Part shown: positions 1,967 through 62,981 of the stretch, piece by piece
Position numbering within the stretch: the stretch's first letter is position 1
Layout of the letters: every line of letters starts with the position of its first letter
DNA from: an uncultured delta proteobacterium
GTDB taxonomy: Bacteria; Desulfobacterota; Desulfobacteria; Desulfobacterales; SG8-13
DNA: 64,000 nt
Direction: 5' to 3'
Assembly (NCBI GenBank): GCA_963848135.1
Contig: CAWKCK010000005.1
Span: 1 to 64,000 of the forward strand
Notes under the pieces: generated by a model
Database searches by the model: none
What the model was told of the DNA's origin: nothing
What the model saw: only the letters and a program-made list of their open reading frames with translations
Translations under genes and position numbers: made by a program

Positions 1967-3928
1967 TCAGCTGATCGAAGCCAACGTTTCTTCGACCGCA
2001 AGGGTAAGTTTAGCGGCATCTGCCGCCGTATTCTCCATCTGACGGATCACTTCTCCGGCAATCGTCTCTTCGAACACCTGTTTGACAATATGGGCCCGGT
2101 TTTCGATCCACCGCTTGACCACCGGTTCCAACATGTCGGATAGATCCTTACGACCGGTCTCATCGATTCCGGCTGAAGCCGGAATCGTAACCAGGGCCCA
2201 CAGGTCGTGCATCCCGAACAATCCATGCAGTTTGGCGTAAATACCGCTGCCGCCCACCGGGTCGCCGGTGGTAAGAATGTAGGCGATACCGAGAGTTGCC
2301 GGCAGAACATTCAGTGAAGCGAAAAAAGATTCCCGGGTTTTTTGCAGGAAATTCATCCGTCGGCGAAATTCGCCGACCAGATTAATCAATTCCTGGTTCA
2401 GCGCTGTATCCTCCGATATGTCCAGTACATCTTTAGCGGCAGCAATGACCCGTTGAGCGGTATCCGTCCAGGGTCGCCGGTCAAGATCATGACGAATTTT
2501 TTTTGAACATACCGGAGCGGCAGCATGAACAGTGACCGTACCGGTTGCAGAGGCGATGTGGCGGGAGGGAAGTTCCTTTTCGCTCAGATCGCGCTGAAGG
2601 CGAATGCGGTCGACGAGAGTGATCAAGCGCACTCCTATCGCATCCTTTGCAATGGTCTCGACGATGATCTCTTCCGCTAAAAGACTGTCCCGCAGTTCTG
2701 CAGCCGAACCCAGAAGATCGGACTTTATCCGCTCAAGAGGGTCAACCGTTCCGGCAGTTCCGCTTTTTTCGCCGGCATCGCCGTCCACCGACGGCTTCAC
2801 GAGGGAAAGGATAATCCTGGCCGGTTTGCCGATCAAATTGCCAACACCGCGAAAAAACTTCAAGTGTGGTGGACTCGTCTCGAGCCAGATGTCATTCAAC
2901 CGTCGCATGATGCTTTTGAGTGGGAACGACACCAGCGATTGCTGCACAGCGCGTCCAAGGGTCAAATGCAATGCGCCAGTATAGAGGTCGATTTCATCCC
3001 GAACGGTTTTTGATTCCGTGACAACCTGGCCGACGTGCTGGACGAAGGCTTCCAGCATTGTCTGAATCTGCCGTTCCCTGATCTGCCGCGGATCCAGATC
3101 TGCGAGCAAGTTCATAATATCTGGTTCCCCGGCCGGCACCGGCCGTAGACGCATGAGCGCTTCCCCCGCAGCCACCGCATCACTGGTGTCGGTCCGGTAG
3201 CAACCGATGAGATAATCGCCTCTTGCCGCACCATACAGGTTGGTGGCCGTCGTTTCGAGATGGGCTCGAACTTGCTGGTCGTCGAGGGTGCGGGAACAGT
3301 TGTAGACCAGAATGCAACGGCGCATGCCCGCCTCGGTCAGGATGTGACGCATGAATCGGGTGTTCTCAAGGTTGTTGTAGGTGGTGTTGGTAACGATATA
3401 AATAAGTACATTACAGGCCTCGAGCACCTCCCGGGCTACATCCCGATTGACGAAACGATCGTCCGATCCGGTATCGAAGTCAGGCGTGTCCATCAGTATC
3501 TGACCCTTGGGGGTATCTTCATGAACGGTCACCAACGGCGGGCCGGGAGTCATCAGGTCCATTGGATCCTGCACTGGAGAGGGCGTCTGCCCGAAGGGGT
3601 CGAATAGGTTGGAAAGGATACTTTTATGCTCGATCATTTGGGGATTAATAGCAATCAGTACCCGCCGGGTGCTGCCCGCATTTCCGCGCACCGGTGAGAC
3701 CCTCTCATTCAGCAGGGAATTGAAGAGTGTCGACTTGCCCGCGTTGGCCCCACCGCAGATGGCCACCATCAGGGGCAGGTTTGGGTCGACCAAGGGTAAC
3801 AGACGTGCATCGAGATTCTTCCAAACCTCGCCTGAAACCGCATCCTCGATGTGGAGCATGTCCACCAGAGCGGGCACAATTTCCCGCAAGCGAAACAGTG
3901 GTTTTCTGTATTGGTCAAATGAGGTCAT
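1967..3928 (-). CDS. Dynamin-like GTPase domain protein (partner of the adjacent GTPase)
   Basis: G1 GGANAGKS, G3 DTPDFD; ORF is open to 3988, ATG at 3928 chosen as the likelier start. Confidence 0.75.
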   Translation of the reverse strand: MTSFDQYRKPLFRLREIVPALVDMLHIEDAVSGEVWKNLDARLLPLVDPNLPLMVAICGGANAGKSTLFNSLLNERVSPVRGNAGSTRRVLIAINPQMIEHKSILSNLFDPFGQTPSPVQDPMDLMTPGPPLVTVHEDTPKGQILMDTPDFDTGSDDRFVNRDVAREVLEACNVLIYIVTNTTYNNLENTRFMRHILTEAGMRRCILVYNCSRTLDDQQVRAHLETTATNLYGAARGDYLIGCYRTDTSDAVAAGEALMRLRPVPAGEPDIMNLLADLDPRQIRERQIQTMLEAFVQHVGQVVTESKTVRDEIDLYTGALHLTLGRAVQQSLVSFPLKSIMRRLNDIWLETSPPHLKFFRGVGNLIGKPARIILSLVKPSVDGDAGEKSGTAGTVDPLERIKSDLLGSAAELRDSLLAEEIIVETIAKDAIGVRLITLVDRIRLQRDLSEKELPSRHIASATGTVTVHAAAPVCSKKIRHDLDRRPWTDTAQRVIAAAKDVLDISEDTALNQELINLVGEFRRRMNFLQKTRESFFASLNVLPATLGIAYILTTGDPVGGSGIYAKLHGLFGMHDLWALVTIPASAGIDETGRKDLSDMLEPVVKRWIENRAHIVKQVFEETIAGEVIRQMENTAADAAKLTLAVEETLASIS

Positions 3929-8845: not shown

Positions 8846-9055
8846 TCCCAAATTGAGCGATTTTCAAGTTTGCCGCAAGTACTAGGAAAATGTCGTTCCG
8901 CTATAGTGAACTATGCGGGACGGCATTGGACGCCGTAGATGCGGTGAAATTGGAAATCCTGTAGGGTTTTATATTTTCGAAATTCCGATGGGCAGAATTC
9001 CTTATTTTTATTCTTCATTTTCATATTTCGAAAATATGAAACGCTCAACTTGGGT
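8846..9055 (+). mobile_element. ~210 bp MITE-like element, copy 1 (diverged)
   Basis: Alignable by eye to 62726-62934 and to the reverse complement of 51157-51366; ends CCCAAATTGAGCG / CGCTCAACTTGGG. Confidence 0.75.
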
Positions 9056-27458: not shown

Positions 27459-27798
27459 TGGAAATCGCCTTTCGCTACGCAGGTGTAGATGACAACCTGG
27501 CTAATTTTTGAATGGCAAAAATGTTTTGATTCAAACCCCGGTGATCGATGGCACCAAATGAACTCCAGTTTGCTAATAAAATCTGTCACGGCCTCTTTGG
27601 GTTGTATATGAGCCCACTTATAGGCTGAGCCTCTGACTTTAGCTTGGTAAAATACTGGAAAATTGACCGATAATCAAGGCTCCTAAACGGTATTGAAATA
27701 ATCGTTAAGGATGAGGTCAGGCGCCCCAAATCTGTTAGGCGATAGCCAAGCCGGGCGTCACGGTAGGTATGGTTTTGATAGCAACCATGGTCGGACAG

Positions 27799-27880
27799 CT
27801 ATCAGCCGTTGGATTTCCTATATATAGCCAGACGGTATCGTTATAATACACTAAATTTAAATAGTTACGAGACTGGCAAG
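27799..27880 (+). repeat. Array site R1
   Basis: CTATC..TATAG-CCAGACG-GTATC..ATAGTTACGAGAC-TGGCAAG. Confidence 0.85.
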
Positions 27881-28205
27881 CTATTTTTACCAATGTGCCA
27901 CACCGTGGTATTGACGAATGTGTTGCTATTAGGTTATGCGTTTCTTGGGGTTATCTCAATCGGTACCGACTTCAGCGTTACCTAACGCCTGATGCTCTCG
28001 TAACCACACCGGTATAATTTACATTTTCCTCATCCATTTCTCACGGTCATTATTCAATCCCCTTTATACCTTAATTAAAAACCTTGGTACCTCTAAGTCG
28101 GCTATATTCATGTAGCTGCTCGTCATTCTCATTATTAAAAGGGGGTGATGCCTCAATATACACAAAACTCTTAAATAAATAGAAATCATTGAAAAAAGAA
28201 AAGCC

Positions 28206-31168: not shown

Positions 31169-31268
31169 CTGCTATATTTCTTGCGTTTTTATCTGGTCGA
31201 TTTGCTTTAGATAGTCACACCGTATCGTCACAAATGATGCGTTTTCAGATAGTTGGACTAATGGCAAG
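31169..31268 (+). repeat. Array site R4
   Basis: CTGCTAT..TTATC..GATAG-TCACACC-GTATC..GATAGTT..TGGCAAG. Confidence 0.85.
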
Positions 31269-35370: not shown

Positions 35371-35429
35371 GGTTTACCCCCTTTGGTTATTGATGTTTGA
35401 CATTCGGGGAAATCCCGAGGTAAACTGAT

Positions 35430-35488
35430 GATAGCCAGATCGTATAAGCAGTTTCAACGGTATTTTCGATAGTTACAAGACTGGCAAG
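35430..35488 (+). repeat. Array site R8 (core and right arm)
   Basis: GATAG-CCAGATC-GTATA..GATAGTTACAAGAC-TGGCAAG. Confidence 0.85.
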
Positions 35489-35963
35489 CTAGTTTTAACG
35501 AGGTGCCACATAGTGGCAATTGACAACATTATCCATATATGAAAATCAATGATCAAGCGAAAGCTCATTCTGAATCTCCGCTGGATGTTCCATACGTTAT
35601 CAAACTTTTCACCTGACTATTCGTCTCCTCTTCATCAACTCCTGGCAATTAAATTCTATACCTAAATAACCAATAGTAACCGGCAACCTAAAACCATCAA
35701 GAGGAGGTTTCGTGATAGGGTTTGTCGATAACCCAATATGCCAAATTGCCTAAGGGGATGGTTTCGTTTTTTTTATTCTTTGCGGAAACAGGTTCTTCTT
35801 GTTGGCCAAGAACCTGATGGCCAATGCAGACGCATTTAACAGTACAACGGCTACAGGATTAAGGAAATAATGACTTAAGCGTTCGAGTAAGGCAATGAAA
35901 GTAAATTGCTGTGCGCAGGTCATACCGCTGTGAGGTCCAATTCTTCTTTTAGGGGGATCATCC

Positions 35964-37154: not shown

Positions 37155-37254
37155 CTGCTATGACCATTGAGTTATCATCTGGTCGATTTGATTGAGATAG
37201 CCGGATCGTATCGTCACAGATTGTTTAATTTCTGATATTTATGCCTTTGGCAAG
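37155..37254 (+). repeat. Array site R9
   Basis: CTGCTAT..TTATC..GATAG-CCGGATC-GTATC..GATAT..TGGCAAG. Confidence 0.85.
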
Positions 37255-37530: not shown

Positions 37531-37645
37531 TCGCGTGGAAAGCAAATCTTACCGAAAGGTAAGGACAGAAAGCCACGGGTCTTGAATCCAACTGCTGATT
37601 CCGGTTTCTCAACACCTCCTATTGTCAAGATAGCCGTGTTGCCGC
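37531..37645 (+). ncRNA. c-di-GMP-I (GEMM) riboswitch-like motif with extended P3
   Basis: GCAAAT-CTTACC-GAAA-GGTAAG-GACAGAAAGCCACGGGTCTT..AAGATAGCCGTGTTGCC. Confidence 0.65.
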
Positions 37646-37871
37646 TTGTGACTTCGTTAGAGTCAGATGAAGATGACCCGGCTATTTTTGTTTGATACTC
37701 TCCCGGTAGCTGAATGCCTGTACACCTTTTTGACCTGTTCTCGAAATACTGAATTAACAACCTTTCTGGTTTAGGTATCAAGCCAACATCCAGTCTCGTT
37801 AGTTCTTCGCCCGTCGCGAAACTGAGTTAGCCTTTTTTATGTTTTATAGCCGAGAAGCTAGGAGGTAAACC

Positions 37872-39345
37872 ATGCGATTCAGTGCAAAATTTTTTTGGAC
37901 AGTGATGGCCGTGTCATTGATTATGGTTATTTCCACTGGACATGAAATACTCGCCGGTACATGCCAGGTTCAAAAAATAGCGGCTGCCGGGAACTATGAC
38001 CCCCAATATTTGACCAATGTCAACGATATACTGTTTTTCAGCGCTGATGACAGTGTGCACAATAGAGAGTTGTGGAAAAGCGACGGCACCGAGGTCGGCA
38101 CCGTCATGGTCAAGGACATTTATTCCGTGAATACGAAGGCAATCCTCTGTCGGTAGCTATCCTACCAAGCTGACCAACGTGAACGGCACACTTTTTTTCA
38201 GTGCCGGACAGATTAGCGGGGGACCACATAACCCGATACGTGAGTTATGGAAAAGCGACGGCACCGAAGCCGGCACGGTCATGGTCAAAGACCTAAATGG
38301 CATGGATCCGGGAGCTCCGGATTGGCTGATCAATGTCAACGGGACGCTATTCTTCACGGCCAGCGATATCGGAGAGGAAGGATCTGAACTGTGGAAAAGC
38401 GATGGCACCGAGGCCGGCACGGTCATGGTCAAGGATATCAACGAGACAGTGCGCCCTGGATTCCCTGACGATAGCAGCAACCCAATGCACCTGACGGCAG
38501 TGGGCAATCTGCTTTTTTTCACTGCCGATGACGGGGAACATGGGCGGGAATTATGGAAAAGCGACGGCACCGAAGACGGCACCGTCATGGTTGAAGATAT
38601 CTGGGCATTGACGATAAGCAGTGATCCCGTCGGGTTGACCCACCACCAGCTGATTGTGGCATTCAGCGCCGATGATGGCCTATCAGGCCGCGAGCTTTGG
38701 GGCAGTGCTCTTGGGTTTGGGGCCTATCAAATCAAGGACATAAGAACGGTTTTTGGTAATCCCCAGCTCAGCAGCAACCCTGAATTTCTCACTTCCATCG
38801 GTAGCACCCTCTTTTTTGCCGCCACTGCCGCGGATGGGACCGCCAGAGAACTGTGGAAAAGTGACGGTACAGAGGCGGGTACGGTCCTGGTAAAAGACAT
38901 CAACCCGCTTGCGGATAGTTCGCCGCAAGACCTTATAAATGTGAATGGTACGCTTTATTTTTCCGCCGATGACGGAGTAAATGGCCGTGAACTATGGAAA
39001 AGCAATGGCACAGCGGCAGGCACTGTCATGGTCAAAAACATCAATCCGCTGGGAGATAGCTTGCCGGAAGGCTTTACATATGTGAACAACAAGCTCTACT
39101 TTTCTGCCGATGACGGAATTAACGGCCGCGAACTATGGACAAGTGACGGCTCGACGTCGGGCACCATAATGGTAGAGGATATCCAGCCGCTCGCAGGGGC
39201 TGGCAGCGATCCGGAATGGTTAACAAACGTGAACGGCACGCTCTATTTTAGCGCTTCGGGCGGGCTTTGGAAATGCTATGAAAAGGAGGAGGATTTTCCC
39301 TGGGAACTCTTTCTCCCTGCAATCACTAAGAAACGCGGAAAGTGA
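37872..39345 (+). pseudogene. Secreted ELWxxDGT-repeat beta-propeller protein, frameshifted near 38125-38155
   Basis: Signal peptide and first ELWKSDGT repeat in 37872-38156; remaining repeats in 38179-39345; may be an assembly indel. Confidence 0.8.
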
Positions 39346-39458
39346 CGGAGAAACCGAGGCTGCTTTATTACCGGACTAGTCATAGACCAACTCTTCATTT
39401 TAGCTGTCATATGTAATTTTGGCGATCCAAGTCACCGATTCAGGGGGGCCTTCAGAGG

Positions 39459-40220
39459 ATGAACAGCAGGGAGATCTTACTTTCATTACCGAAGGTGTTG
39501 GACATGAAGGATAAAGGGATAACAGCTATAGGCTTGGCGATTCCCATTCTGGCATTTATTTTAATGCTTGCTTTTCCACAGGTTGTCATAGGCGCTGCTC
39601 CAAATGAGAACCTCACACCAATATATATGTTGCTGCTTGAAAGTGGCTGTCAATCAGTTGCCATCTCTCTAGTAAAGGACATCAATGGTTACGGAAGTTC
39701 TGTCCCAGAATATTTAACCAACATCAATAGTTTTCTGTATTATAGTGCAATGGACGGTGTTTACGGTGATTATCTGTGGAAATCGGACGGCTCCTCTTCC
39801 GGCACTAAGATGGTCAAAGACATCAATAGTGTTGAAGGTTCTAAACCGGAGAACTTAACCAACATTAACGGCACTCTGTTTTTCAGCGCATTTGATGGAG
39901 TCAACGGACGGGAGCTATGGAAATCGAACGGCACTCATGCAGGCACTCAGATGGTGAAAAACATAAATACCGGTGGTAATTCTTTCCTTTATTCACTCAC
40001 AAACGTTAATGGCTCCCTATTTTTCAGTGCTACAGAAGGCGTCCATGGAAGAGAACTATGGAAATCCGATGGCACCTCCGCGGGTACCCAATTGGTTAGG
40101 GATATCAATAGCAGCGGAGATTCTTACCCGTCTGGTTTAACGAATATCAATGGCACGCTTTATTTTAGTGCAGATGATGGGGTCAACGGAAAGGAATTAT
40201 GGAAAGCAGAATGTCGATGA
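39459..40220 (+). CDS. Secreted ELWxxDGT-repeat protein
   Basis: Four (E/Y)LWK-type repeats after a signal peptide; start may be 39504. Confidence 0.85.
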   Translation: MNSREILLSLPKVLDMKDKGITAIGLAIPILAFILMLAFPQVVIGAAPNENLTPIYMLLLESGCQSVAISLVKDINGYGSSVPEYLTNINSFLYYSAMDGVYGDYLWKSDGSSSGTKMVKDINSVEGSKPENLTNINGTLFFSAFDGVNGRELWKSNGTHAGTQMVKNINTGGNSFLYSLTNVNGSLFFSATEGVHGRELWKSDGTSAGTQLVRDINSSGDSYPSGLTNINGTLYFSADDGVNGKELWKAECR

Positions 40221-42546: not shown

Positions 42547-42969
42547 TTGCCGTTTTTCCCGGTTTCCTTTGTGGTGGAATGGATGTGCAGGATGTTGACC
42601 AATATGCCGGATGTTGCCCCGTCCATGCATATGAATCGGACCGTAGCTCGATATGAGGATGGTTATGATGTCGTTCTTAGAGATGCGCCGGCGGTCATAG
42701 TCGCCCACGCCCATAAAGAAAATCGTGTGGCATCAGCAGCCTGTAACACCACACAGACTTACTTGGAATTGGCCTCAACCACCCTGGGAATGGGGGCCTG
42801 TTGGGCAGGCTATTTTAATGCGACTGCAACTACTTTTCCGCCTATGAAAAAGGCCTTAGTCCTGCCCGAAGATCACAAGGCATTTGGTTCCATGATGGTT
42901 GGATATCCAAAGTATCGATATCAACGCATGCCAATCCGGAATGTACCTAGAATCACGTGGCGACTATAA
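42547..42969 (+). pseudogene. C-terminal fragment of a nitroreductase family protein
   Basis: DAPAVIVAH, LEL....GMGACWAG, VGYP; N-terminal part absent. Confidence 0.7.
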
Positions 42970-43000
42970 AAAGAGAAAAGCAGCTCGTTGGATTACATAT

Positions 43001-43057
43001 TATAGCCAGATCGTATATACAGTATTAATGCTATTTTAGATAGTTACGAAACTGGCA
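43001..43057 (+). repeat. Array site R11, split by IS110
   Basis: TATAG-CCAGATC-GTATA..GATAGTTACGAAAC-TGGCA; the remaining AG resumes at 44608. Confidence 0.85.
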
Positions 43058-43199
43058 CCCATTAAAAGGCTTCCGTCAACAAAAAACACCACGCCATCGC
43101 AAAGGGGGTATATTTTTTTGCAGGAACAAAATTCAGTTCGACGTTCGTCCTATTTTTTTTACCTGCTCCCGAAATTTATTTTTGTTTTCTGTGCAGCGT

Positions 43200-43487
43200 C
43201 ACTTAATCTGCTAACAGGCACCCATCAGGATCAAGGCCAAAGAGAGAATATCTAAAGCCCCTGGTCCGTAATCGGACCCCAGAAAAAGATCGGTACCTTG
43301 TCAAAGCCAATTGGGTTGTCACAAGAGATAGGGCTCCTTTCGGGCCAGCCATTGCGAGCTTATGACAAGGGCAGATCGAAAAAGCGGACACCCGCCTGAA
43401 TCTATATTGTAGGGAGTGCAGCGGTGGCCAACCAAGCAATAGGGATTTTAACCACCAATAGCAAAGGATCACCGCTGCAGTCCCAAA
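43200..43487 (-). ncRNA. Putative bridge/seek RNA of the IS110 element
   Basis: Non-coding, hairpin-rich; contains segments matching the target (CCUUG / CUGG) and the donor junction (AUGGGUG / GAUUA); boundaries approximate. Confidence 0.55.
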
Positions 43488-44508
43488 CTATTGCGCAAGA
43501 AGCTTTTCACGAAAGGGAACCTGATCTCTCATGATATAGTAGCAGATGGCGGGCCAGTTTGTTGCCCAGCGCTTTGGTTGCCAGACTTGTATTGGCCTGA
43601 GCAACCTTGCGGTTATAGTATCGTCTAAACTGTTCATTATACCGACGGCCCAATTGAGCGGCTTCAGTGAGGGCCCAGCTCAGGTAGCGATTGCCGTTTT
43701 TACGATTGCCACACCCCTTGCTTTTTCCGTCGGACAACCGCTTGGATGGCACGCACCGACAGTAGGAAGCAAAATTGCCGACCTTTGGAAAACGATTGAT
43801 GTCACCCACTTCCAGCATGATAGTCATAGCCAGAATGTTACCGATACCGGGTATTGTCAGCAATTGCCTGAACCCTTTTTTGAGTTTTACTCTTTCTATT
43901 ATTGCTTTCTCTATACTTTTGATCTTCTGCTTGAGAAAATTTATTGTATCCAAACTGGTTTGAGCAGAGAAAATCAGGTACTCTTCTTTTAGCCACCTTT
44001 CCAATGCTTCGACGTTCATCTTTCGGATGTCACTGGTGCTTATTTTTACTGCACAGCATCTTTGAATGAACGATTGCAGGCTCAAGATGTTCGCGGTCTT
44101 GTGCCGGACTAAAAACATCCGTTTGCGTGCCAGGTCCCGCACCGGGCGATGTTGCTTTGGGTAAATGTAGCCTTCGGGCAAAATACCGAGTATGAGAAGT
44201 TGGGCCAGAAAAAAGGCGTCATGCTGATCGTCACTGTACTTTAGCCCTTCGTATTGTTTGATTGCCGACGGGTTGGCCAAGTGTGCAGAGCCATATCCCG
44301 CATCCATGAGGCCATCTACGAGCCAGTACCAGTTGTAGGTGGACTCTACAACAAATCCCTTTAATCGTTTTTTGAAGGGTTCTAACGTGTGAAGAATCTG
44401 GTCAAGGTCATTGGCCAAACGCTTTTTGAAAACACGGTTCAATGCATCGTCTATGATTCCGATGTAGGTATTTCTTTAATGAAGATCCAGACCAGCGTAC
44501 AGTTCCAT
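43488..44508 (-). pseudogene. IS110-family transposase/recombinase with a premature stop and a C-terminal frameshift
   Basis: MELYAGLDLH-TAA (codon 11), VVEST, SDD.HDA, TIPGIG, SDGK; extra base near 43548 before ICYYIMRD. Confidence 0.85.
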
Positions 44509-44882
44509 AGGGCACCTCCTACGTTATAGGGTTATGGTTGGGATCAACCCTTTATAACGAATCGCTGTGTCCTTTGCGAACGGGAGGTGCCTTTTAGATG
44601 ATTATCAAGATATTATTACCAATGTGATACGCTGTGGTATTGACGTTTGAATTACTATTGGGTTATGCGCTTCTTTGGGGACATTTTAATCGATACCGTC
44701 TTAAACCATACCAAATGCCTGTTGCTCTCGTCATCGCTATTACCCAATTCTTTCGAACCCATCCATTTCTTACGGTCATTGATCGTTCCCATTTCTATCT
44801 CAATAACACCATTAAATCCTTGAATTTCGTTTTTGGCTCGTTGCTATTCACATATCTGGGCAATATCTATCAAGGGGGGAAG

Positions 44883-46679
44883 ATGAGTAAAAATTGGATG
44901 TTGATCGCAATCGTTTTCATCGTATCATTGGTGGTGTTCACAGCCCCGCTTGTAAACCACCAGGCCGCAGCCCAGGAATGGAACTGGCAGAACCCTTTGC
45001 CCCAGGGTAACCGCCTCAATGGGATTTGGGGAAGCTCGACCAGCAATGTCTTTGCCGTTGGCGAAGGTGGCACTATAATCCGTTACAACGGTACCAGTTG
45101 GGGTAGTATGACTACCACTACCACCTCAGCAGACCTCTATGGTGTTTGGGGAAGCTCGGCCAACAATATCTTTGCTGTGGGTCAAGGCGGCACCATCATC
45201 CGCTACAACGGCAACAGCTGGACTTCCATGGCCAGCGGCAGCTCACAGAACCTAACTGATATCTGGGGAAGCTCGGCCAATAATGCCATTGCTGTCGGCC
45301 TTAACGGCACCATCCTGCGCTATGACGGCAGCAGCTGGACCACCATGCCCAGCGGCATATTAGAAGATCTCAATGGTGTCTGGGGAACATCAAGCAGCGA
45401 TGTCTTTGCCGTCGGCGAAAAAGGCACCGTCATTCATTATGACGGCATTAGTTGGAACACCATGACAGCTACCGGCACCTCAGAAAACCTCTTCGGCGTT
45501 TGGGGAAGCTCGGGCAGCAATGTCTTTGTTGTCGGTGGTAACGGAGCCGTCATCCGCTATGACGGCTCCAGCTGGAGCCCCATGAGCGGTATTCCCGATT
45601 ATGTCGGTCTTTACGGGGGGATTTGGGGTAGCTCAGGGAGTGATGTTTATACTGCAGGATATTCCGGCCACATCTTCCACTACGACGGCCAGACCTGGAC
45701 CTCAGTGGGCTACCTGGGCACATCAAACTATTTCTATGGAATCTGGGGAACTTCCGCCAGTGATGTTGCTGCCGTTGGTACGGGTGGGGCTATCTACCAC
45801 TACGACGGCAGCAGCTGGAGCCCCACGAGCACTGGCGATACCCTCTATTATCTGGGAGGTGTCTGGGGAAGCTCGGATAACAACGTATTTGCCGTTGGCC
45901 GTAGCGGCACTCTCTTCCAATATGACGGCAGCAGTTGGAGCTCAACAAGGATTGTCACCAGGTATTTCGATGGCATCTGGGGAAGCTCTGCCAGCGACGT
46001 TTTTGCCGTGGGACAACTCGGCACCGTCGTGCACTACAACGGCTCCAGTTGGGAAAATATGACAGGCACCGGCACTGCAGAGTGGCTCAAGGGCATCTGG
46101 GGGAGCTCTGCCAGCGATGTCTTTGCCGTGGGACGAGGCGGCACCATTCTTCACTACGACGGCGGTAGCTGGAGCCTCATGACCAGCGGCACGTCCAATT
46201 CCCTCAACGGCATCTGGGGAAGCTCGGGCAGCAATGTCTTTGCCGTGGGCTGGAACGGTACCATTCTGCACTACGACGGCAGCAGCTGGAGCCCCATGGC
46301 CAGCGGCACGTCCGATTACCTCAGCGGCATCTGGGGGAGCTCTGCCAGCGACGTCTTTGCTGTGGGGGGAAACGGCACCGTCCTTCACTACGACGGCAGC
46401 AGCTGGAGCCCCATGACCAGCGGCACGTCCAATGCATTCAACGGCGTTTGGGGAAGCTCGGGCAGGAATGTCTTTGCTGTGGGGGTGAGCGGCGCCATCA
46501 TTCGCTACAACGGAAGCAGCTGGAGCCCCATGACCAGCGGCGCCTCCAATACGCTCCGTGGTATCTGGGGAAGCTCTGTGGGCGACGTCTTTGTTGTGGG
46601 CGACTATGGAACCATCCTTCATTTCGAGGTGCTTCCAAACCACGTTAACTGGCTGTTTTTGCTGCTCTTGTATGAGTGA
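44883..46679 (+). CDS. Secreted beta-propeller protein with ~39-aa GIWGSS.SDVFAVG..GTILHYDGSSW repeats
   Basis: GGGGGG RBS, signal peptide, about 14 tandem repeats; ends HVNWLFLLLLYE. Confidence 0.85.
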   Translation: MSKNWMLIAIVFIVSLVVFTAPLVNHQAAAQEWNWQNPLPQGNRLNGIWGSSTSNVFAVGEGGTIIRYNGTSWGSMTTTTTSADLYGVWGSSANNIFAVGQGGTIIRYNGNSWTSMASGSSQNLTDIWGSSANNAIAVGLNGTILRYDGSSWTTMPSGILEDLNGVWGTSSSDVFAVGEKGTVIHYDGISWNTMTATGTSENLFGVWGSSGSNVFVVGGNGAVIRYDGSSWSPMSGIPDYVGLYGGIWGSSGSDVYTAGYSGHIFHYDGQTWTSVGYLGTSNYFYGIWGTSASDVAAVGTGGAIYHYDGSSWSPTSTGDTLYYLGGVWGSSDNNVFAVGRSGTLFQYDGSSWSSTRIVTRYFDGIWGSSASDVFAVGQLGTVVHYNGSSWENMTGTGTAEWLKGIWGSSASDVFAVGRGGTILHYDGGSWSLMTSGTSNSLNGIWGSSGSNVFAVGWNGTILHYDGSSWSPMASGTSDYLSGIWGSSASDVFAVGGNGTVLHYDGSSWSPMTSGTSNAFNGVWGSSGRNVFAVGVSGAIIRYNGSSWSPMTSGASNTLRGIWGSSVGDVFVVGDYGTILHFEVLPNHVNWLFLLLLYE

Positions 46680-47065
46680 TGAGGAGTGTATTGCTTTGAA
46701 TAGATTCACATTTTGATCGTGAATTGCAGTAGATCGTGTTTATCTCTGAATGTTCAATTCACAAATCCGGATTGATCCCACAAATTTCCTGTGTAGTTGC
46801 CTCCGTTAACATCGGGCCGTGGGCACCTGGACTGAGCGAAGGTGGTTCGCCTATACCTATAATATCTCAGTTTTTAAACATCCAGAATAATTTATGGTAC
46901 GTTATCTGTCATAATTTGTCATCTAAAAAGTACAGATAATGTACACTCGTTAATGGGAACACTCGCGCAGTATATCAACCATACATCGTTAACGGAAGCT
47001 TGGTCTGATATATTTTGATATCTACATTTTTTCAAATGGTTAAGAAAATTTCTATGATCCCACAT

Positions 47066-47148
47066 CTATCACCCTGCGGATTTCCTGAATATATCCAGAC
47101 GGTATCGTTATAATAGACGAAAATTTAGATAGTTATGAGAATGGCAAG
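47066..47148 (+). repeat. Array site R12 (closest to R1)
   Basis: CTATC..GGATTTCC..TATAT-CCAGACG-GTATCGTTATAATA..GATAGTTATGAGAA-TGGCAAG. Confidence 0.85.
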
Positions 47149-47201
47149 CTGTACGACATAAAACCTATTATTTCTATTAATAATGGTTAGTTATAGAACA
47201 T

Positions 47202-49420: not shown

Positions 49421-49500
49421 TCCAGAACAAAGCTAAACCTGTCGTGAGGCAGAGACAGAAAACCACGGACCTGTTAGCAGGCAGCCGGGTTACCACGGAA
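49421..49500 (+). ncRNA. c-di-GMP-I (GEMM) riboswitch
   Basis: G-CTAAA-CCTGTC-GTGA-GGCAGA-GACAGAAAACCACGGACCTG..CAGGCAGCCGGGTTACC. Confidence 0.8.
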
Positions 49501-51096: not shown

Positions 51097-51156
51097 TTTT
51101 AAAATTTGTTAGATTTTAATATAAGTCCTGTTTTATTACTAACCCAAGATACTTAA

Positions 51157-51366
51157 ACCTAAAGTGAGCGTTTCATATTTTAAATGGAGGGGGAACTGCT
51201 TCGTTTATAAGGAATCCTATCAAAGTTTGATTTTAAAATTTGAAACCCTTTGGGATTGCCGATCTTGCCGCATCTACGGTGTCATATGCCGTTCCGCATA
51301 GCTGACTATTGCGGAACGACACCTTCCTTGTAGCTGCGGCAACCTCGACAATCGCTCAAATTAGGT
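51157..51366 (-). mobile_element. ~210 bp MITE-like element, copy 2
   Basis: Ends ACCTAAAGTGAGCG / CGCTCAAATTAGGT; close reverse complement of 62726-62934. Confidence 0.8.
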
Positions 51367-51756
51367 GAAATTTAGTTATATCGTAATATCGTGTTGACAA
51401 TAAGATTCATTTAACATTAAAAATGTTCTCAGTTCCGCTGTGAAATCTCATCACTTATTCTGTTCGCACGCCCCTCCATCTGAGTTCAAGCTGCAGTCCG
51501 ACATTTGGATCAAAATATTCGTAAGCATTCACAGGGTACCGCATCTGCTTTGTTGTCGGGCACTTGAAGTACAACAGTACGTCTGCGCGCCTGACGCCTT
51601 GCGTCCGCGGCACCCTGTAAACGCTTACAATTCTGTGGTCTGAAGTCCATTGGCCGTTAGCAACCCTGTGAACCGATACCAATATTCCAAAAACTTCTTA
51701 TAGCTGCGGTATGAGCAAAAGGTAACTATTGCCATTAAGTCAAAAAAGGAGGCGAC

Positions 51757-62567: not shown

Positions 62568-62725
62568 ACGATATGATAATCATCCTCTCAGGTATCTGTT
62601 AGCTTCCAGAGCTGTCTAACTTTGAAAGCCTCCGCATCAAGGCTGGGGGGTTACCGATGGTTATTGATCTCGAAAACCTCATCCCGGCAGTGTCGGTTCC
62701 CGCGAGTTTCTGCCGGAAATATTAG

Positions 62726-62934
62726 ACCTAATTTGAGCGATTGTCGAGGTTGCCGCAGATACAAGGAAGATGTCGTTCCGCTATAGTCAGCTATGCGGGA
62801 TGGTATATGACACCGTAGATGCGGCAAGATCGGCAATCCCAAAGGGTTTCAAATTTTAAAATCAAACGATGATAGAATTCCCTATATATAAAGCAGTTCC
62901 CCCTCCTTTAAAATTTGAAACGCTCACTTTAGGT
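62726..62934 (+). mobile_element. ~210 bp MITE-like element, copy 3
   Basis: Ends ACCTAATTTGAGCG / CGCTCACTTTAGGT; flanked by TAG on both sides. Confidence 0.8.
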
Positions 62935-62981
62935 TAGATAATGCCTGAATGCATGTCAATAGTACAGGTAGTGATGACAAT

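Follow-up and report, generated by a model that had tools for sequence, protein, structure and literature searches.

An IS1111-type insertion sequence of an uncultured Desulfobacterales bacterium probably encodes, downstream of its transposase gene, a guide RNA matched to its insertion site

What directs an insertion sequence (IS) to one recurring short site in a genome? The question is raised by a 1,548 bp element that interrupts a dispersed intergenic repeat in a 64,000 nt stretch of DNA, here called the window, from an uncultured delta proteobacterium (Desulfobacterota, Desulfobacterales, SG8-13; GenBank assembly GCA_963848135.1, contig CAWKCK010000005.1, positions 1 to 64,000). A first-pass annotation, made from the letters alone, had proposed that the long region 3′ of the transposase gene encodes an IS110-type bridge RNA in which four short words match the two halves of the target and the two ends of the element. 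We find that this region most likely does encode a bridge RNA or seekRNA, made up of three related hairpin modules on the transposase strand. The general idea of the proposal was right, but its guide map was wrong for three of the four words.

The ends of the element were determined from eight full-length copies in the same genome and their flanks, and from intact copies of the interrupted repeat in the window (families D7 and D9). The features that define the element are as follows.

43058-44605, minus strand: IS1111-type insertion sequence, 1,548 bp
44608-44614, minus strand: left target flank AATATCT, which with the core reads AATATCTTG
44606-44607, minus strand: core dinucleotide TG at the left junction
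44589-44596, minus strand: left subterminal inverted repeat TAAAAGGC, 8 bp, 9 nt from the end
43488-44508, minus strand: transposase gene (DEDD / Transposase_20), disrupted in the window copy by a stop in place of codon 11 and by one extra nucleotide close to the 3′ end
43063-43070, minus strand: right subterminal inverted repeat GCCTTTTA, 8 bp, 5 nt from the end
43056-43057, minus strand: core dinucleotide TG at the right junction, from comparison of copies and flanks
43050-43055, minus strand: right target flank CCAGTT, which pairs with the right guide described below (UAUUGG) at 4 of 6 positions, or 5 of 6 if a G-U pair is counted

The eight full-length copies are 90-100% identical and are accompanied by three fragments. 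All eight begin ATAATC and end ATGGG, have TG on each side and lie in one orientation between flanks of the form ..CT-TG and TG-CCA... On the minus strand, the left flank of the window copy terminates in ..ATATCTTG (CTTG last) and is followed by ATAATCATC.. (starting ATAATC), and the right end ..TTTTAATGGG (ATGGG last) is followed by TG and then CCAGTT, so that both junctions are as the first-pass annotation gave them. The interrupted repeat copy has halves at 42999-43057 and 44585-44637, with intact counterparts at 27856-27908 and 35464-35516. Because the intact copies read CTGGCAAG on the plus strand, the TG (CA on the plus strand) is common to both junctions. Comparison of all eight copies with intact sites, CTTGCCA with a single TG, showed that only the core dinucleotide is shared, with no longer duplication. 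The 8-mer CTGGCAAG itself is not enriched in the window, with three matches against 1.68 expected and 24 of 100 shuffles reaching three.

The element is an IS110-family, IS1111-type insertion sequence with a TG core. The seven other full-length copies in the genome have an intact transposase of 339 aa, which matches PF01548 (E 9.7e-11) and PF02371 (E 1.1e-19) in Pfam as well as the NCBIfam profile NF033542, 'IS110 family RNA-guided transposase' (188.9 bits; cut-off 140). An intact copy thus has both the N-terminal DEDD/RuvC-like and the C-terminal Transposase_20 domain that define the family. The IS1111 subgroup is described as having subterminal inverted repeats of 7-17 bp, a transposase of 330-350 aa and a long non-coding region downstream (PMC11187229, PMC11208160). 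The element has 8-bp subterminal repeats, the 339-aa transposase and about 430 nt of non-coding sequence 3′ of the gene (43058-43487), compared with 97 nt on the 5′ side. The two subterminal repeats covary among relatives, TAGTAGGC occurring with GCCTACTA and TAGCCGGC with GCCGGCTA. The C-terminal motif quoted for the subgroup, GL-P----S(t)G (PMC11187229), was compared by eye with the corresponding protein sequence, ..RCVPSKRLSDGK.., in which P-x4-S is present, followed by D and then G. The three modules of the window copy are identical to those of three intact copies (L002-L004), and the window copy, although it lacks a functional transposase, could therefore be moved in trans, as a non-autonomous passenger of the seven intact copies.

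Relatives of the element were used to examine the non-coding region. One genome per species was scanned, yielding 578 stretches encoding relatives, and the best 80 of the 578 were used. These are 51-89% identical to the element and come mostly from metagenome genomes labelled Desulfobacterota. Their left ends are near-constant (TG, then ATAATCAT..), as are their right ends (..AATGGG, then TG). The left flanks before the core end in CT, CG, TT, CC, TC, GT, AA or AG, and the right flanks begin with CCA, CCT, ACCC, ACAC, TCCT, ATAA and others. As the ends are nearly constant but the flanks differ, the relatives provide a natural test for any proposed guide. A fold of the single sequence 43058-43487 gave a z-score of -2.26 and is unreliable for loop assignment, so comparative folds were used.

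Two further arrangements were seen among the relatives. In L012 (positions 2930-3010) the last ~44 nt of the right end is tandemly duplicated (..GCCTTTTAATGGGTG twice), giving two candidate right ends, and L084 and L085, two copies of the related element on one contig, are oppositely oriented with about 1 kb between them.

The evidence for a guide RNA comes chiefly from a hairpin that starts just past the gene, with the following parts.

43411-43485, minus strand: module 1, putative target-binding hairpin (seekRNA-like), 75 nt, starting 3 nt after the stop codon, from the consensus fold and a covariance model
43484-43470 with 43426-43412, minus strand: closing helix P1 of module 1
43455-43460, minus strand: right target guide UAUUGG, in the 5′ strand of the internal loop and able to pair with right flank CCAATA, from covariation with flanks
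43453-43443, minus strand: inner hairpin of module 1
43433-43441, minus strand: left target guide with core, UAUUGCUUG, in the 3′ strand of the internal loop and with the same sequence as left flank plus TG, from covariation with flanks
43431-43432, minus strand: dinucleotide GU directly 3′ of the core, AU in most relatives; handshake-like pairing with AT, the opening bases of the left end, would be possible by analogy with IS621 (PMC11208158)

In the consensus fold, the closing helix has 12 bp and is followed by a CC:GG pair, a large internal loop and a short inner stem with a cap. Compensatory changes were observed in 12 of the 16 predicted pairs of P1. A covariance model built from 20 diverse copies places the module immediately past the gene in 84 of 91 loci; sense-strand scores are 32.6-82.6 bits and antisense scores do not exceed 26.5 bits. 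The internal loop contains both guide segments, one complementary to each strand of the target, and both covary with the flanks; the right guide, which matches the top strand, is 5′ of the left guide, which matches the bottom strand.

The covariation was measured by permutation of all unique guide-flank pairs. Exact duplicates only were removed, and the aberrant locus L034 and the degenerate first hairpin of L043 were retained. The left guide equals the left flank at an average of 4.59 of the 7 positions before the core, compared with 2.35 +/- 0.18 when permuted (n=54 unique pairs), and the right guide pairs with 4.91 of 6 flank positions, compared with 3.03 +/- 0.17 (n=53 unique pairs); neither value was reached in 10,000 permutations. 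Some relatives carry the right guide one base out of register, so two registers were tried for it and the higher score was taken. The same outcome was obtained when each distinct guide was represented by a single row (38 rows). Individual loci show how closely the guides follow their sites. Where the site is CGTG the guide reads CGUG (CUUG in the window), as seen in L020, L022, L024, L025, L027 and L036, and right flanks with CCT are accompanied by a guide with AGG (L014 and L020). More extensive changes are also matched: an ATGCCTG flank with an AUGCCUG guide (L059), ACACCT with AGGUGU (L057), TCCTAT with AUAGGA (the L084 group) and ACCCCATT with AAUGGGGU (L045).

The same relationship is found within the genome of origin. 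Beyond CTTGCCA itself the guides span eight further positions. Free CTTGCCA sites, of which there are 911, match these at 2.66 positions on average, compared with 4-6 (mean 4.875) for the eight occupied sites, and only 2 of 100,000 random sets of eight reached the occupied mean. The preferred site of the element is contained in the dispersed intergenic repeat, which has 16 matches genome-wide, and five of the eight element copies lie within such repeats (recognised by a shared AACTATC..AAAT motif in their right flanks). The match between guide and site would explain why the element recurs in one intergenic repeat of this genome.

The positions of these guides bear directly on the earlier layout, which was that of an IS621-style bridge RNA with a target loop formed by GCCCUUG and CUGGC and a donor loop formed by AUGGGUG and GAUUA. 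The four words are present on the minus strand (GCCCTTG at 43372-43366, CTGGC at 43348-43344, ATGGGTG at 43225-43219 and GATTA at 43208-43204), and they do spell CTTG/CCAG and ATGGG-TG-..TAATC. When the 430-nt region was shuffled 5,000 times, however, only ATGGGTG proved rarer than chance (3.3% of shuffles, and 0.16% for ATGGGTGCC). The other three were at chance level: CTTG occurs four times in the region and is present in 89% of shuffles, CTGGC appears in 32%, and GATTA, found twice, in 40%. The first-pass annotation had itself named segments lying outside internal loops, or not covarying with targets in homologues, as findings that would count against it, and this is what was seen for three of the four words. 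Five of the seven bases of GCCCUUG form the 5′ strand of a covarying helix, P2 (see below), and the relatives have CCUCUG, CCCAUG, CCUAUA or CCCGUG in its place, which are unrelated to their left flanks; loci with CGTG sites have CCUCUG. CUGGC is made up of the last base of a loop, UGG of the inner stem and one further base, and the UGG stays constant where the right flanks are ACCC, TCCT or ATAA. GAUUA, proposed as a donor guide, combines the last stem base and loop bases of a third hairpin, P3, and is replaced by GAUCA, GAUCG, GAUUG or GAAGC in relatives in which ATAATC is constant. A mini-hairpin CUG-UUAG-CAG placed between the two donor words is absent both from the local fold and from the relatives. 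A much stronger, covarying pair of target guides is found at 43460-43433, ~70-110 nt upstream of the proposed ones, with the right guide 5′, which is the order of IS1111 and not that of IS621. We consider the earlier layout very improbable. What survives of it is the IS110 element with its TG core and RNA-like guides to the insertion site in the long 3′ region, borne out by the family profiles, the eight copies and the guide-flank covariation, together with the placing of the target module 5′ of the donor-end module and one word, AUGGGUG, the only one of the four that follows its partner in homologues.

AUGGGUG belongs to the third module, where the match to the right end turned out to be longer than had been claimed.

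43217-43226, minus strand: putative donor-end guide, GAUGGGUG (43226-43219) followed by CC (43218-43217), tracking the right end and the right flank
43189-43217, minus strand: hairpin P3, CUGU..GCAG-loop-CUGCACAG, from the local minimum-energy fold of the window copy

The family form of the motif is GAUGG(G/A)UG plus a dinucleotide. In all 52 loci that have a defined right end, the pentamer preceding the core is the same as the terminal pentamer of that end (ATGGG in 44 and ATGGA in eight, the latter in two contexts), and each base of the dinucleotide that follows the core equals its counterpart among the first two right-flank bases in 51 of 52. Four states of this dinucleotide were seen (CC, AC, UC and AU), and the sole miss is L034. 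The first core base differs from that at the right junction in six loci, which have CG or CA in the DNA and UG in the RNA. The motif is preceded by a GAUCC-like box, as are the loops of modules 1 and 2, and followed by hairpin P3. The sequence of the module is among the most conserved stretches of the non-coding region. By our own reading of per-sequence folds, 26 of 29 relatives have a hairpin with different stem sequences at the place of P3. The consensus fold of this region retains only a 4-bp helix with no covariation, and is uninformative because the variable hairpin aligns badly.

Two side observations concern this module. In L030, an insertion of ~40 nt, about 280-330 nt past the gene, interrupts the donor-end guide (GAUGA..[insert]..GACUGGUGC), and this locus may have lost donor-end guide function. 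In L023, L026, L049, L052, L083 and L089 the right-junction dinucleotide is CA or CG, compared with TG in the left junction or the RNA guide, a difference that may reflect past insertion into sites whose core did not match.

The behaviour of module 3 is relevant to another possibility, that only module 1 carries guides, in the manner of a short seekRNA, with modules 2 and 3, including AUGGGUGCC, as scaffold, processing or regulatory parts of a longer precursor and the ends read by the protein via the subterminal repeats. Short seekRNAs of 70-100 nt, which hold the target matches, suffice for ISEc11, and the role of the long form of 145-170 nt is stated to be unknown (PMC11187229); moreover, no guide to the left end was found here and module 2 tracks the target loosely. 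However, AUGGGUG and the two bases after it follow both the G/A variant of the right end and four flank dinucleotides in 51-52 of 52 loci, which is hard to explain without pairing to the right junction, and the high conservation of module 3 also speaks against it. We regard this arrangement as unlikely.

It could also be asked if the 3′ region acts as DNA, providing protein-binding sites or internal pseudo-ends, with the flank matches being no more than copies of the junctions. Such a reading gains something from AUGGGUGCC, which is a literal copy of the right junction. Against this, the helices are retained through compensatory and G-U changes and the covariance model scores far higher on the sense strand. 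Duplication of DNA is also disfavoured because one target guide is in the sense and the other in the antisense orientation, on either side of a hairpin, and members of the family have been found experimentally to be RNA-guided (PMC11208160, PMC11187229). A purely DNA-level role seems to us scarcely credible.

Between modules 1 and 3 lies a second hairpin of the same build as module 1, followed by a conserved stretch.

43290-43377, minus strand: module 2, with helix P2 formed by 43370-43361 and 43305-43296
43330-43322, minus strand: 3′ guide-like loop of module 2, UAUCUCUUG, opposite AAUGGC in the 5′ loop
43257-43295, minus strand: conserved single strand ..GAUCUUUUUCUGG, then hairpin GGUCCG-AUUA-CGGACC, then AGGGGC, from conservation in the family

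Nine of the 12 pairs of P2 show compensatory changes; for example, 18 of 34 sequences have A-U where the window copy has a U-A pair. In the stretch that follows (43257-43295), the copies in the genome of origin vary only in the hairpin loop and by one G-C to G-U change in the stem. The 3′ loop of module 2 agrees with the left flank at 3.83 of 7 positions, compared with 2.28 +/- 0.22 when permuted (0 of 10,000 permutations), a looser relationship than that of module 1. For the 5′ loop, the register of which is uncertain, the agreement with the right flank was 3.23 of 6 against 2.97, reached by 387 of 10,000 permutations. Where the target has changed strongly (L074 and L057), module 2 did not follow. 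We tentatively suggest, as a possibility that is more doubtful than probable, that the IS1111-type elements of this clade use a guide RNA with three loops rather than two, in which a second target-like loop, either module 2 or, in some relatives, a tandem module 1, gives a second, related specificity or holds the flanks during excision. If this is true, the two-base extensions on the guides that read the bottom strand would imply strand exchange in the mirror order of IS621.

Seven relatives (L040, L046, L047, L054, L070, L071 and L080) have two full target hairpins in tandem, with different guides. The site of L047 fits the second hairpin copy (9 of 10 left-flank bases) and that of L046 fits module 2 best. 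On a single contig, L070 and L071 represent one element in two copies, the left flank of each fitting a different hairpin. The tandem hairpins hint at dual target specificity.

For the three-module guide RNA that we favour, the following course of events is proposed. By analogy with IS621 and the IS1111 seekRNAs, the RNA would be transcribed with or after the transposase message, and we infer that it is made and bound by the enzyme. Module 1 would form the target-binding loop, in which UAUUGG would read the right flank. UAUUGCUUG repeats the left flank and the TG core and would therefore pair with the bottom strand, and the dinucleotide after it could pair with the first bases of the left end. 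In module 3, GAUGGGUG-CC corresponds to right end, core and two right-flank bases and can therefore hold the bottom strand of the right end, which would be held in this way in either the circle junction or the inserted state. The recombinase would then cut at TG and exchange strands, an order of chemical steps that is likewise proposed here, and the element would be inserted in one orientation at ..UUGCU-UG-CCAAUA.., a motif of the dispersed intergenic repeat. In both core-containing guides, the two bases after the core would represent the start of the other partner, with GU or AU in module 1 standing for the left end and CC in module 3 for the right flank, and these extensions may act like the handshake guides of IS621 in mirror orientation. 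As they make both guides continuous with the junctions of the inserted element, they would also fit a role in excision.

A circular intermediate might in addition supply a promoter, for which one further feature is needed.

43074-43079, minus strand: TTGACG, a -35-like box read from the sequence (TTGACA in relatives)

A circle junction would set this box 17 nt from GATAAT, formed by the G of the core and the left end (44606-44601), and would in this way create a junction promoter, a suggestion that draws on the published biology of IS1111 and IS110 elements. A separate observation on the left end is that GGCACCTCC (44576-44584, minus strand) is complementary to GGAGGTGCC in the ribosome-binding region (44510-44518, minus strand), ~60 nt away, in all relatives. 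Pairing of the two in read-through transcripts could mask the ribosome-binding site.

Several points weigh against this interpretation. The existence and the ends of the RNA are without direct support, as four metatranscriptome runs from four studies gave only contigs of relatives. These contigs are 88-99% like parts of the gene and the non-coding region, including 43257-43426, and cannot show transcription, strand, starts or ends; the parts that they do not cover are uninformative. In Rfam, no match to a module or to the element was found at gathering thresholds across the whole window, and a search of 42950-44700 with E up to 10 gave only a chance match to a CRISPR repeat (E 4.1). The matches within the clade are imperfect, and in the window copy only 4 of the 7 left-flank positions that precede the core agree with the guide. 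L020, L036 and the L084 group have their right guide in a register displaced by one base, and the right flank of L034 fits neither its module 1 guide nor its donor-end guide. The permutations ignore relatedness among loci, and the eight insertions in the genome of origin are not independent because five of them are in one repeat family. The favoured model leaves the role of module 2 unexplained. Finally, when a guide to the left end (ATAATC) was sought, the candidates GA..UUUUCUGG, CCUUGAUCC and GAAAUAAC were considered and none was convincingly complementary to ATAATCAT, nor did any candidate change with the left-end variants ATATTC, ATATCC, ATAGCC, ATACCC, AAAATC and AGAATC. Covariation could not locate such a guide because the left end hardly varies.

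An RNA-guided IS110-family element aimed at a repeated site via a TG core is a kind of system already known, to which this element is a new addition. The closest likeness is to the IS1111 seekRNAs of ISEc11, ISPa11, ISKpn4 and ISPst6 (Siddiquee et al. 2024, PMC11187229). The shared characters are a transposase of ~340 aa, subterminal repeats, a long downstream non-coding region with a hairpin RNA of ~75 nt (predicted here) just past the gene, two matches that meet at the insertion point, natural re-programming of the guides among relatives and the use of a repeated sequence as a target. The order of the guides is also the same: in IS1111 seekRNAs the top-strand match precedes the bottom-strand match in the 5′ to 3′ direction, opposite to the order in the IS110 type (PMC11187229). 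The present element differs in its hosts, ends and targets and in being known from its sequence alone. It adds a second hairpin resembling the target module and a donor-end match extended by two flank bases; in the text of PMC11187229 referred to here, what the long RNA does is left open.

The resemblance to the bridge RNA of IS621 (Durrant et al. 2024, PMC11208160; Hiraizumi et al. 2024, PMC11208158; PMC13626964) is in the internal loops with one guide for each DNA half-site, a 2-nt core within the guide, a target loop 5′ of the donor loop, two bases beside the core-containing guide that can pair with the other DNA partner, and a circle junction that would create a promoter. However, the IS621 RNA is 5′ of the gene and has its left guide 5′ of its right guide, whereas here the putative RNA is 3′ of the gene, with the right guide first. 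The present element also has its handshake-like bases after the guides to the bottom strand and has three modules rather than two, and a left-end guide was not found. A further likeness, by description only, is to ISPpu9 of Pseudomonas putida, an IS110-family element that is inserted in repeated extragenic sequences and whose transposase gene is followed by the gene for a small RNA, Ssr9 (PMC12288879). The element described here offers a well-resolved natural example of what would be RNA-guided site choice in the less studied IS1111 branch, and the 38 left and 38 right distinct natural guides, each paired with the flank of an insertion site, constitute a comparative data set for examining re-programming and handshake positions.

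The setting of the element in the window was also examined.

27769-27915, 31169-31268, 35428-35524, 37155-37254, 42999-43057 + 44585-44644 and 47036-47150: dispersed intergenic repeat, ~100-150 nt, upstream of plus-strand genes for repeat-rich proteins
44634-46679, plus strand: long open frame with internal tandem repeats, with periods of 117 nt and ~350 nt at 45015-46618
38026-40105, plus strand: long open frame with nine copies of a ~94-nt unit
37532-37646 and 49422-49497, plus strand: two c-di-GMP-I riboswitch aptamers, 46.5 and 52.2 bits, above the Rfam gathering threshold
51156-51371 and 62721-62935: inverted repeat of ~193 nt, 91% identity, arms 11.3 kb apart

A reading of the target repeat as a sigma-54 promoter (TGGCA..) was considered and rejected, as the spacing does not fit; the comparison with the consensus was made by eye. 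The element lies ~27 nt upstream of the GTG at 44634 and may therefore separate that gene from its upstream region. The riboswitch aptamer at 37532-37646 is located between a copy of the repeat and an open frame beginning at 38179. The arms at 51156-51371 and 62721-62935 may be the ends of another mobile element, and a related 131-nt direct copy of the ~193-nt repeat is found at 8847-8977.

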